Shown piece after piece: positions 23,266-25,892 of a stretch of 33,634 bases of DNA. Position numbers and translations under genes: made by a program. The notes below the pieces were generated by a model. The model was not told where the DNA came from. It did no database searches and worked only from the letters and a program-made list of their open reading frames with translations. This DNA comes from an uncultured Gammaproteobacteria bacterium (GTDB lineage Bacteria > Patescibacteriota > Patescibacteriia > JACRDY01). The stretch spans positions 1-33,634 of the forward strand of contig CAYINJ010000004.1 of NCBI GenBank assembly GCA_964364745.1. The letters run 5' to 3'. Numbering within the stretch: position 1 is the first letter of the stretch; each line of letters opens with the position of its first letter.

Positions 23266-25803
23266 ATGTCCAATTACGACCCCAAAACAATTGAACCGAA
23301 GTGGCAAGCGGCCTGGGAAGAGCAAGGGATCTATCACGCCAGTGACGACCCCACTCGGCCGAAGTATTATTATTTGATTGAGTTTCCCTATCCGTCTGGC
23401 GAAGGGCTACACGTTGGCCATCCGCGCAGTTTTACGGCGTTAGACATCATGGCGCGCCAGAAGCGGATGACCGGCGCCAACGTGCTTTATCCGATTGGCT
23501 TTGATGCCTTTGGCTTACCATCAGAAAACTATGCCATTAAGACCGGCGTCCATCCGGCGATTACCACGGAGAAAAATATCGCCACCTTCACTCGGCAGTT
23601 GAAGAGTTTGGGGCTCTCTTTTGATTGGTCGCGCGTGTTGTCGACGACCGATCCACAGTATTATAAATGGACGCAGTGGATTTTCTTACAACTCTACAAA
23701 CACGGTCTGGCCTATAAAGCCAAGATGCCGATTAACTGGTGTATTAATTGCAAAATTGGTTTGGCCAACGAAGAGGTGGTGAACGGTAAATGCGAGCGCT
23801 GTGACGGCCCGGTCGAGAAACGGGAGAAAGAACAGTGGATGTTGGCGATTACCAAATACGCCGATCGCTTGATTGATGATCTAGCGACGACTGACTATCT
23901 CGAGCAAATCAAAACCCAGCAGATTAATTGGATCGGGCGGAGTGAGGGCGCGGAGGTTGAGTTCCCGATCGTCATTGCGAGGAAGTTTACCCTGAGCGAT
24001 AGCGAAGGGAAGCAATCCCGGGGGGAGAGCGCTGAACCCGGGATTGCCACGCCCCGAAACGGGGCTCGCAATGACGTGATTAAAGTATTCACGACTCGCC
24101 CTGACACGCTGTTTGGCGTGACCTACTTGGCGATTTCACCGGAGCTAGCGCAGAAGTGGATGGACATCGGTTGGCCGGCGCCGGCGACAGTGGTGGAATA
24201 TGTCACGGCCGCATTACAGCGTTCAGAGATGGAAAGAGGCGATGAGACAAAAGAAAAAACCGGCGTCGATACCGGAATTCAAGCGATCAACCCGGCTACC
24301 AAGCAACCAATCCCGGTGTGGGTGGCGGACTATGTTTTGGGTGGGTATGGCACTGGTGCGATCATGGCCGTGCCGGCGCATGACGAGCGGGATTTTGATT
24401 TTGCAGAAAAGTACAATCTACCAATGAAGCAAGTGGTTGTTAATACTGACGAGGGGGTACGCTATTCTGTGTCAGAAAATAAAAGTGAAATAGAAAAGAA
24501 AAATTCACTGAAAAAATTTCACGAGCAACATGGGACGCTTGTTGATTCAGGTGAATTTACTGGCCAACCATCAATCGAGGCGGGCCCAAAAATTGCTGCT
24601 AAAGTCGGTGGCAAAATGAAAGTGCAATACAAACTCCGTGACTGGGTCTTCAGCCGTCAGCGCTACTGGGGTGAACCGATCCCGATGGTCAACTGCGCCA
24701 AGTGCGGTTGGGTCCCGCTGCCCGAAGACCAACTGCCACTAGAGCTGCCGGCCGTGGAGCGCTATGAACCAACCGACACGGGTGAGTCGCCATTGTCGGC
24801 CATCACCGAGTGGGTCAATACCACTTGTCCGACCTGTGGCGGCCCGGCCAAACGAGAGACCGACACCATGCCCACTTGGGCTGGTTCGTCGTGGTATTTC
24901 TTGCGCTACCTTGATCCGCAGAATAACACCGCGCTGGCCGATCCGGCTAAATTGAAATACTGGTTACCGGTGGATTGGTATAATGGCGGCATGGAACACG
25001 TCACGCTCCACCTATTATATTCGCGTTTCTGGTATAAATTCTTGTGGGATATCGGCGCCGTACCAAAAGAGTGTGGGAGTGAACCGTATAAAAAACGCAC
25101 CGCGCAAGGCATGATTTTAGGTGAAGGGGGAGAGAAGATGAGTAAGTCGCGCGGCAATGTCATTAATCCCGATGAAGTGGTCGCCGAACATGGTGCCGAC
25201 ACCCTGCGGCTGTATGAGATGTTCATGGGGCCGTTTGATCAAGCGATTCCGTGGGACACCAAGAGCATCATCGGCGTGCGCCGGTTCTTGGATAAAGTGT
25301 GGCAGGTCGGATCGACGGTCTCGCCTAACGCGGACACTGCACCAGCTGTCACCCAATTACTCCACCAGACCATTCAAAAAGTCACGGCTGATATTGCCGC
25401 CATGCGTTTCAACACGGCCATCAGCGCGTTGATGATTTTGGTTAATATGTTGCAAAAGCAAGCGGCGATCTCACCGGCGACCATGGAAACACTATTGGTG
25501 ATCTTAGCGCCGTTTGCGCCGCACATCACCGAAGAGCTCTGGCACCAGTTGGGGCACATCGACAGCATCCACACCCAGACCTGGCCGCAATATGATCCGG
25601 CCTTGGCGCAAGCCGATGAAATGGAGATTGTGGTTCAGATTAACGGCAAACGGCGGAGTAGTTTCATGGTCGCCACCGGCGCCACGGACGCGGCAGTGGA
25701 AAAGCTGGCCTTAGCTCAAGAGAAGGTCCAAGCCGCGCTAGCTGGCCAAACGCCGAAGAAAGTAATTGTCGTGTCGGGCCGGTTGGTCAATATTGTGGTA
25801 TAA
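23266..25803 (+). CDS. leuS: Leucine--tRNA ligase (carries an in-frame repeat-derived insertion)
   Basis: The 845-aa product has HIGH (HVGH), KMSKS, the editing-domain entry TTRPDT and GTGAIMAVPAHD. Confidence 0.97.
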   Translation: MSNYDPKTIEPKWQAAWEEQGIYHASDDPTRPKYYYLIEFPYPSGEGLHVGHPRSFTALDIMARQKRMTGANVLYPIGFDAFGLPSENYAIKTGVHPAITTEKNIATFTRQLKSLGLSFDWSRVLSTTDPQYYKWTQWIFLQLYKHGLAYKAKMPINWCINCKIGLANEEVVNGKCERCDGPVEKREKEQWMLAITKYADRLIDDLATTDYLEQIKTQQINWIGRSEGAEVEFPIVIARKFTLSDSEGKQSRGESAEPGIATPRNGARNDVIKVFTTRPDTLFGVTYLAISPELAQKWMDIGWPAPATVVEYVTAALQRSEMERGDETKEKTGVDTGIQAINPATKQPIPVWVADYVLGGYGTGAIMAVPAHDERDFDFAEKYNLPMKQVVVNTDEGVRYSVSENKSEIEKKNSLKKFHEQHGTLVDSGEFTGQPSIEAGPKIAAKVGGKMKVQYKLRDWVFSRQRYWGEPIPMVNCAKCGWVPLPEDQLPLELPAVERYEPTDTGESPLSAITEWVNTTCPTCGGPAKRETDTMPTWAGSSWYFLRYLDPQNNTALADPAKLKYWLPVDWYNGGMEHVTLHLLYSRFWYKFLWDIGAVPKECGSEPYKKRTAQGMILGEGGEKMSKSRGNVINPDEVVAEHGADTLRLYEMFMGPFDQAIPWDTKSIIGVRRFLDKVWQVGSTVSPNADTAPAVTQLLHQTIQKVTADIAAMRFNTAISALMILVNMLQKQAAISPATMETLLVILAPFAPHITEELWHQLGHIDSIHTQTWPQYDPALAQADEMEIVVQINGKRRSSFMVATGATDAAVEKLALAQEKVQAALAGQTPKKVIVVSGRLVNIVV
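23970..24076. repeat. Palindromic repeat element inserted in frame inside leuS
   Basis: It has the same termini and internal architecture as 23149-23254. It is translated as VIARKFTLSDSEGKQSRGESAEPGIATPRNGARND. Confidence 0.92.
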
Positions 25804-25831
25804 AAACAAACTCCGCCTACAGCGGAGTTTG
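25802..25831 (-). terminator. Intrinsic terminator in minus-strand orientation (the hairpin also sits right after the leuS stop)
   Basis: The hairpin caaactccgc-ctaca-gcggagtttg has an A5 run on the plus side, which reads as U5 after the hairpin on the minus strand. Confidence 0.7.
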
Positions 25832-25858
25832 TCGGAAGTATTCCGGTTGACACCTGTT
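25802..25858 (-). ncRNA. Candidate ~57-nt small RNA (promoter-to-terminator unit)
   Basis: It is bounded by the TTGACT-16-TATAAT promoter (25865-25892) and the terminator above. Its 5' part is complementary to the anticodon arm of the adjacent tRNA-like gene. Confidence 0.4.
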
Positions 25859-25864
25859 ATGATT

Positions 25865-25892
25865 ATTATAACTGCTGTAATAAAAAAGTCAA
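25865..25892 (-). promoter_or_regulatory. Near-consensus sigma70 promoter TTGACT-16-TATAAT on the minus strand
   Basis: Plus-strand agtcaa (25887-25892) and attata (25865-25870) are separated by a 16-nt spacer. Confidence 0.6.

Follow-up and report, generated by a model that had tools for sequence, protein, structure and literature searches.

Organization of the locus

The window analyzed here is a stretch of 33,634 nucleotides (contig CAYINJ010000004.1 of assembly GCA_964364745.1, contig C4 in our numbering) from an uncultured bacterium of the Patescibacteriota, whose 95%-complete, metagenome-assembled genome has a size of 686 kb and a GC content of 54%. Between leuS and a histidine-phosphatase-like gene lies a spacer of 232 nt that contains, entirely on the minus strand, the element in question: a gene for a tRNA-like RNA followed by a predicted gene for a short RNA that is complementary to its anticodon-like arm. 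We refer to the pair as the module, and to the tRNA-like RNA as the look-alike. No open reading frame (ORF) of at least 60 amino acids is present within 25804-26035. The features are as follows (coordinates are those of the window).

23266-25803, plus strand: leuS ORF, convergent with the module; stop codon at 25801-25803
25801-25832: intrinsic terminator hairpin of the short RNA, with a U run on the minus strand; perfect 11-bp stem with a 5-nt loop
25802-25858, minus strand: predicted short RNA of ~57 nt, consisting of seed, short linker and terminator; start placed ~7 nt past the -10 box
25856-25838, minus strand: 5' seed of the short RNA, 19 nt, reverse complement of look-alike positions 25965-25946
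25865-25892, minus strand: predicted sigma-70-type promoter of the short RNA; -35 box TTGACT (25892-25887), 16-nt spacer, -10 box TATAAT (25870-25865)
25912-25989, minus strand: tRNA-Ala-like RNA of ~78 nt, placed by ARAGORN, the Rfam score and covarying structure
25989-25978 with 25923-25912, minus strand: 12-bp terminal stem of the look-alike, made of a 7-bp acceptor stem and five leader-trailer pairs
25976-25967, minus strand: D hairpin of the look-alike, 3 bp with a UGGU loop
25956-25950, minus strand: loop (CUUGACA) of the anticodon-like arm, on a 7-bp stem
25943-25965 (core 25965-25946), minus strand: target of the short RNA in the look-alike, running from the 5' strand of the anticodon-like stem through the entire loop into the first part of the 3' strand
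25940-24, minus strand: T arm of the look-alike, canonical, preceded by a variable region of 2 nt
25998-26030, minus strand: putative promoter of the look-alike; TTTAGA (26030-26025), 21-nt spacer, -10-like TATCGT (26003-25998)
from 26036, plus strand: histidine-phosphatase-like gene, divergent from the module and apparently leaderless

A first-pass annotation, made from the letters of the DNA, had proposed that a near-consensus promoter at 25892-25865 drives a ~57-nt RNA that ends at a strong hairpin plus U5 and pairs with the tRNA-like anticodon arm over 19 bp with one bulge. It had reasoned that such a combination in a GC-rich genome is unlikely to be coincidental. As sequence anatomy, all three parts of the proposal hold at this locus. 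The argument against coincidence has gained from the rarity of the promoter, from the strength of the duplex and from the recurrence of the module with compensating changes in related genomes, while its premise needs correction, the genome being only moderately GC-rich.

The short RNA gene has a rare predicted promoter and a perfect terminator hairpin

The site TTGACT-16-TATAAT matches the sigma-70 consensus at 11 of 12 positions and is the best sigma-70-like site between 24500 and 27500. Sites with at least 11 matches number 51 in the whole genome, as compared with 3-6 in shuffled genomes, so that a promoter of this quality would fall by chance into a spacer of ~100 nt with a probability of ~3e-4. 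Its hexamers are of the TTGACA/TATAAT type and, across related units, stay 16-18 nt apart and conserved while the sequence between them varies; this is the signature of a sigma-70-type promoter, whose activity we predict on these grounds.

At the other end of the gene, 25806-25816 and 25822-25832 form a perfect inverted repeat that is followed on the minus strand by TTTTT. A GC-rich hairpin directly before a U run is the classical form of an intrinsic terminator; a consensus terminator scan of the locus did not list this one. On the plus strand the same hairpin begins 3 nt past the leuS stop codon, with an A run on its other side, and it therefore probably terminates the convergent leuS transcript as well, working in both directions. 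We also considered that the short RNA might carry a short tag ORF, as one half of a two-piece tmRNA: the units inspected show no conserved frame or stop position.

The seed of the short RNA is matched to the look-alike

The complementarity is made of two arms, 25847-25856 with 25946-25955 (10/10 positions) and 25834-25846 with 25957-25969 (12/13), which give 19 bp with one bulged C. The predicted free energy of the duplex between seed and look-alike is -37.6 kcal/mol, against -17.1 ± 3.1 kcal/mol for shuffled seeds (z = -6.6). No other site in the genome matches the seed nearly as well as the look-alike does. A true tRNA was rejected as the real target: the canonical 91-nt tRNA-Ser(UGA), encoded elsewhere in the genome, has no match to the seed. 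An exact 14-nt match (BLAST E = 0.03) falls between convergent genes, at C26:6624-6637. We examined it as a possible second, decayed copy of the module, but its flanks are not homologous (alignment score 36, versus 37.9 ± 6.2 in shuffles), and it is probably a chance match. Chance also accounts for a 13-mer match at C26:4253, within a gyrB-like ORF.

The tRNA-like RNA combines an alanine-type head with a non-decoding body

ARAGORN calls the look-alike a 70-nt tRNA-Ser(tga), and the Rfam tRNA model (RF00005) scores it at 28.9 bits, just below the gathering score of 29. A canonical decoding tRNA has a 5-bp anticodon stem, U33, a purine at position 37 and a variable region that is either 4-5 nt or long. 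The look-alike departs from this pattern in its 7-bp stem, in C37, in its 2-nt variable region and in combining a serine anticodon with the lack of the long serine variable arm. The loop follows the form N-U-NNN-C-A across related units, with a free middle triplet: UGA is the commonest, and UAA, UGU, UCA, UAG, UAC, GGU and others are also found. Position 37 is C in 27 of 32 paired units, which makes the RNA a poor fit to a decoding tRNA. It is not a complete tmRNA either, since it has neither tag frame nor pseudoknots: at 78 nt there is no insert, and the only similarity to a tmRNA model is a 10.6-bit partial match to tmRNA_permuted.

The upper half is of a different character. The acceptor stem (GGGGUCA/UGGCUCC-A) carries G1-C72, G2-C71, G3:U70 and A73, the alanine identity set, on a 7-bp acceptor that sits on the T arm; G3:U70 and A73 are also found in the genome's own tRNA-Ala genes and in its tmRNA. 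These elements suggest that the look-alike could be charged with alanine. G3:U70 is present in 56 of 58 aligned relatives, a count to be read with the caution that the search pattern fixed U70 in the pattern-derived loci and left G3 free; among the copies found by the covariance model alone the fraction is 14/15. The motif GU-GGG...UCC-AC is unchanged in 38 of 39 paired units. The fold as a whole covaries: in five family copies of the look-alike, 12 of 24 pairs change on both sides while 95.8% of cells remain paired, values that partner-shuffled controls never reached and that fall to 35-53% paired in slid controls.

The putative promoter of the look-alike is predicted to start transcription at the first base of the 12-bp stem or 1-2 nt before it. 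Most units of the family have TTTAGA ~40 nt ahead of the stem, as do some distant units (L075 and L187, and also L092 and L041, which lack a partner); other lineages have a (TG)nTATAAT box 6-9 nt before the stem. Starts at these places fall on the first bases of the 12-bp helix, and the five 'leader' bases would thus be part of the primary transcript. The distance of 21 nt between TTTAGA and TATCGT is too long for a normal -35 box, and TTTAGA at 26025-26030 overlaps a TAAAAT box located just before the phosphatase ATG (26036).

Related units keep the same anatomy

To place the locus in context we collected ~40 units, 16 of them from eight Patescibacteria genomes and ~26 from metagenomes. A covariance model of the tRNA-like RNA (R1) served for the search, and pattern scans of species-genome and metagenome collections were then filtered by R1. 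Metagenome units were chosen by T arm, TCCAC and promoter, without regard to complementarity. Copies matching R1 are present in five of the seven genomes of the family (the order holds the same seven genomes), with 1-4 copies per genome. In a sample of 151 genomes of the class, 13 have an R1 match at E ≤ 1e-6. Carriers of the module with a name include Falkowbacteria, a Saccharimonadales-labelled genome and 'Patescibacteria group'.

The first-pass annotation had asked whether the pair of RNAs co-occurs and co-varies in relatives, and it does both. All of the first 15 units examined have the promoter, the complementary 5' segment and the terminator, and in these a TTGAC[ACT]-16..18-TAnnnT site lies 1-21 nt past the tRNA-like gene. 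A promoter-like site occupies the same place in 16/16 units gathered without a promoter requirement. Among 37 strongly paired units the -35 box is TTGACA in 30, TTGACT in six and TTGACC in one. The surrounding DNA varies in both sequence and length (16-18 nt between the hexamers, 1-25 nt from the tRNA-like gene to the -35 box) and only the hexamers are conserved, which marks them as a promoter signature rather than an RNA motif. Pairing starts +4 to +10 nt past the -10 box in 15/15 units, that is, at the predicted 5' end of the transcript, and terminator hairpins equivalent to the one described above close every paired unit.

Head-to-tail tandem arrays are found at L011 (two units, G006:C58), L160 and L182, where neighbouring units differ mainly at stem and seed positions.

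Look-alike and short RNA change together

Cognate specificity is evident when every short RNA is paired in silico with every look-alike. For the first 15 units the mean duplex energy is -38.1 kcal/mol for cognate and -22.7 kcal/mol for non-cognate pairs, and 14/15 short RNAs have their own partner as the best one. With 43 units the corresponding values are -35.2 versus -17.3 ± 4.8 kcal/mol, the own partner being the best in 37 cases, with two more near ties. In the ungapped 14-bp core of the duplex, formed by the loop and the 5' strand, 12.8 of 14 positions are paired in cognates against 9.4 ± 0.16 with shuffled partners, and every column of this core shows 3-6 different pair types. A complementary seed accompanies ~26 of 30 model-positive metagenome loci, and the loops UUAACA, UUGUCA, UUCACA, UUGGUA, UUAGCA and UUACCA that occur there are each mirrored in the short RNA of the same unit.

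The same pattern is seen at close range. The stems of syntenic orthologues in the genomes G004 and G006 are not alike, and each short RNA corresponds to the stem of its own unit; in the recently duplicated tandem units of L182 only a few stem positions differ, and the short RNAs differ at the matching positions. The mismatches tell on which strand the pairing is selected: the 15 duplexes contain 314 Watson-Crick and 30 G·U pairs, versus 3 A·C 1x1 mismatches. Tolerance of G·U and not of A·C means that the pairing is selected in RNA of the tRNA-like sense strand, and not in DNA or in RNA of the other strand. In many units the complementarity runs past the stem into the D arm for a total of 22-29 bp and would there break the D-loop/T-loop elbow as well.

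A proposed mechanism and its alternatives

We think it probable, while being well short of certain, that the locus is one intact copy of a two-gene RNA module in which a dedicated antisense RNA captures an alanine look-alike. An antisense-type RNA directed against the tRNA-like RNA was among the roles suggested by the first-pass annotation, and the cognate-specific covariation across related units supports it. The mechanism that we propose runs as follows. The first gene would make the ~78-nt look-alike, its upper half of the tRNA-Ala/tmRNA type (G1-G2-G3:U70, A73, canonical T loop, GG in a small D loop) and its lower half, with 7-bp stem, N-U-NNN-C-A loop and a pyrimidine at position 37, not built for decoding. 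The second gene, starting 1-25 nt downstream at its own strong sigma-70-type promoter, would make a ~55-70-nt RNA composed of a single-stranded 5' seed and a terminator hairpin. The seed would nucleate on the U-turn loop of the look-alike and then zip along the 5' strand of the anticodon-like stem, in many units into the D arm, for 19-29 bp altogether. Such pairing would displace the 3' strand and destroy the lower half of the L-shape, often together with the elbow, while leaving the acceptor/T minihelix in place. The look-alike would thereby be sequestered or inactivated one-for-one, and the long duplex would be a likely substrate for RNase III. In none of the paired units does a terminator separate the two genes, and hence read-through from the first gene would carry the antisense segment in cis. 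The look-alike would then be free only when it has been cut off from the read-through RNA and the short RNA is limiting.

Genes for RNase III, a CCA-adding enzyme, AlaRS, RNase P RNA and SmpB are present in the genome, as is a full standard tmRNA at C35, next to smpB; maturation, charging and duplex cleavage of the module RNAs are thus possible in principle. As to what a free look-alike does, our preferred guess is a role at the translation apparatus, where it would mimic a tag-less tmRNA head or an Ala-tRNA. RqcH was rejected as a user of such a mimic, as its NFACT_N domain was not found in the 95%-complete genome.

Several points weigh against this interpretation. Both transcription starts and all RNA ends are predictions. 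Alanylation of the look-alike is deduced from its identity elements, for which the search was biased towards U70 as described above, and the covarying 5-bp leader-trailer extension might hold its 3' end paired and uncharged. The net gain from pairing is a piecewise estimate that leaves the terminal stem, D hairpin and T arm folded: the duplex contributes -30.6 kcal/mol, opening of the anticodon-like arm costs +8.1 and opening of weak hairpins in the short RNA +5.0, which comes to approximately -17.5 kcal/mol. With the terminal stem kept, the complex is a pseudoknot in the concatenated notation of RNAcofold. Finally, about one third of the tRNA-like genes found without a promoter requirement are partner-less and end in their own terminator, which means that the look-alike can exist without the short RNA.

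The strongest competitor, to which we would give a minor but real share of the probability, holds that there is one RNA and not two: a ~190-nt transcript is made from the upstream promoter only, its downstream segment works in cis as an anti-fold or pro-sequence, holding the tRNA-like part in a misfolded state up to processing, and the internal promoter is incidental or minor. The uninterrupted passage from the first gene to the second speaks for it and against two separate RNAs, as does the minimum-energy fold of the 188-nt read-through RNA, which forms the long-range helix at -76.3 kcal/mol; the covariation fits cis and trans pairing equally well. However, the -35 and -10 hexamers are conserved at 16-18 nt in an otherwise variable spacer of 1-25 nt, the complementarity always begins 4-10 nt past the -10 box, and near-consensus promoters are rare in this genome, while a cis element would need no promoter features at all. 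A conserved and well-placed promoter argues that the short RNA acting in trans is real. The two modes are not exclusive, and we regard the cis and trans action of the antisense segment as complementary.

Equally an RNA-level explanation, and one that we consider unlikely, is an RNA-only poison/antidote pair following type I or type VIII logic. Here the free look-alike would harm the cell, for example by occupying AlaRS, EF-Tu or SmpB, by getting into ribosomes or through misincorporation of alanine, and the unstable, strongly expressed short RNA would neutralise it, the whole being a selfish or abortive-infection element. The genetic organization has the right look: an adjacent, separately promoted pair with ~20 nt of complementarity and the stronger promoter on the antisense partner. 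So do its patchy distribution within the family, its differing contexts without a conserved nearby protein gene, the tandem duplicates with diverged specificity (L182, L160, G006) and the existence of decayed copies with insertions. But the toxicity of the look-alike is hypothetical, C37 and the 7-bp stem suit it poorly to decoding, partner-less copies are common, and none of 64 pattern matches in viral contigs was a module. That last result also led us to reject a phage origin; two weak model matches in the viral contigs are ordinary phage tRNA-Ala genes. More improbable still is a reversal of roles, in which the short RNA would be an effector that acts on other targets, while the tRNA-like RNA would serve as its sponge or decoy, much as 3'ETS-leuZ does. 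Sponges derived from tRNA transcripts are known, and the intergenic 14-nt match on C26 could be taken as another target of the seed. The seeds are, however, hypervariable between units, with nothing in common beyond the complement of the loop, so that a shared mRNA target is implausible; the look-alike outranks every other match, the true tRNA-Ser(UGA) is unmatched, and the surroundings of the C26 match are, as noted, not homologous.

We give hardly any credence to the remaining possibility, a feature of the DNA itself, such as a recombination site or an inverted repeat that persists from an integration or duplication event at a tRNA gene. Integration at tRNA genes is common, and at a distance of one gene from the unit the GC content falls from ~54% to ~45%. 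The comparative data count strongly against it. The ratio of 30 G·U to 3 A·C indicates pairing in RNA of a single strand, the units have neither an integrase nor any other conserved protein gene in their vicinity, and the promoter and terminator are conserved, with compensatory evolution in syntenic orthologues. The first-pass annotation had offered a remnant of integration or duplication as its second suggestion; a scar of that kind would not keep promoter, terminator and compensatory changes across lineages, and this suggestion is not supported.

Comparison with known systems

The two-RNA module is apparently undescribed. Rfam 15 gave no match anywhere in the window in gathering mode and, in E-value mode on 25700-26100, only the sub-threshold tRNA match and noise. 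Our literature searches, which covered Patescibacteria/CPR, tRNA-like RNAs, alanine identity, antisense RNAs and RNA toxins, turned up no such pair; the nearest published items were tRNAs that combine alanine identity with non-alanine anticodons, and RNA antitoxins of short complementarity in trans, RalA among them.

In its anatomy, an alanine-type head on a non-decoding body, the look-alike is closest to the tRNA-like domain of tmRNA. Both have G3:U70 and A73 for alanine identity and a T arm of canonical form, the D region is reduced in both, and in neither does the lower half decode. Tag-less mini-tmRNAs that consist of the tRNA-like domain only occur in phage DS6A and in jakobid mitochondria. 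Unlike tmRNA, the look-alike has the anticodon-like hairpin in full but lacks pseudoknots and an mRNA-like domain; it is not matched by the tmRNA models of Rfam, and the genome already has a full tmRNA; we know of no tmRNA with a dedicated antisense partner. With tRNA-Ala, including the genome's own tRNA-Ala genes, the look-alike shares the GGG start of the acceptor, G3:U70, A73, the T loop and the GG of the D loop. It differs in the 12-bp leader-trailer stem, the 3-bp D stem with a 4-nt loop, the 7-bp anticodon-like stem, the 2-nt variable region, C37 and its non-alanine triplets (UGA here).

Some antisense RNAs use U-turn (YUNR) loops for fast pairing, and the module would share with CopA/CopT, RNAI/RNAII and hok/Sok the nucleation on a 7-nt loop with U at the U-turn position and the subsequent spread into the stem. 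In those systems the arrangement is different: in the module it is the target that is structured, whereas the antisense partner is linear, and the genes are in tandem, not overlapping. Type I RNA antitoxins (tisB/istR-1, ralR/ralA) and type VIII pairs (SdsR/RyeA, CreT/CreA) resemble it in that a small RNA with its own promoter is encoded next to the gene whose product it can pair with, over ~16-25 nt; RalA, which pairs in trans, has 16 nt of complementarity (PMC4041452). The module differs from them. A type I target RNA encodes a small toxic peptide, while here the target is a 78-nt folded tRNA-like RNA and the spacer lacks an ORF of the size stated above. The antisense relation of a type VIII pair is present, with a tRNA mimic as target whose toxicity would be hypothetical.

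The T-box riboswitch is likewise an RNA that reads a tRNA-shaped partner via the anticodon loop, but it does so with a 3-nt specifier plus contacts to the elbow and NCCA end and controls a downstream gene, whereas the 19-29 bp of the module would unfold the partner and no downstream gene follows. Allo-tRNAs (PMC5389517) and a putative Ala-tRNA(CCG) (bioRxiv 10.64898/2026.04.02.715157) also place G3:U70 on a body with a non-alanine anticodon. These are decoding tRNAs with no partner RNA described, and allo-tRNAs have an 8/4 or 9/3 acceptor/T geometry and long variable arms (PMC5389517), unlike the look-alike.

A tentative extension, which we regard as possible rather than likely, is that Patescibacteria carry unrecognised RNA-only switch modules: an alanine-chargeable mimic of tRNA or of the tmRNA head would act on ribosomes or on another enzyme that uses aminoacyl-tRNA, and each copy would be kept in check by its own orthogonal antisense RNA. 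If so, a cell could hold several independently addressable on/off (or poison/antidote) RNA pairs, with new specificities arising by paired mutation. Patescibacteria genomes are among the smallest in bacteria, and yet some keep up to four copies of this protein-free cassette. Should the look-alike accept alanine, AlaRS would have a third kind of client beside tRNA-Ala and tmRNA, and the first for which a dedicated RNA antagonist is reported. The matched hypervariable pairs also offer a natural collection of RNA-RNA recognition modules that are orthogonal to one another and share a constant scaffold.

Genomic context and variant copies

All-against-all BLASTP of the ORFs around 16 units revealed no conserved protein neighbour, only pairwise synteny. 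At our locus the GC content drops from ~52-58% to ~43-48% one gene past the module (window positions 26650-33634), placing it near a compositional boundary.

Partner-less tRNA-Ala-like genes that end directly in a terminator include L028, L029, L031, L034, L084 and L094, as well as L057 and L115, and L070 and L045; two partner-less copies come from Acidimicrobiia, outside the Patescibacteria. Many of the partner-less copies have a conserved leader, GUGGAG (GUGGAC in Saccharibacteria copies), which is complementary to the 3' acceptor strand CUCCAC and could mask the acceptor end in cis.

Two further copies, L013:1501-1635 (G002) and L023:1501-1622 (G004), contain a GC-rich palindromic insertion of ~40-50 nt in the T loop or T arm, and in one of the two the pairing with the short RNA is weakened (-13.5 kcal/mol). 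Both look like copies disrupted by the small palindromic repeat elements that are common in these genomes.

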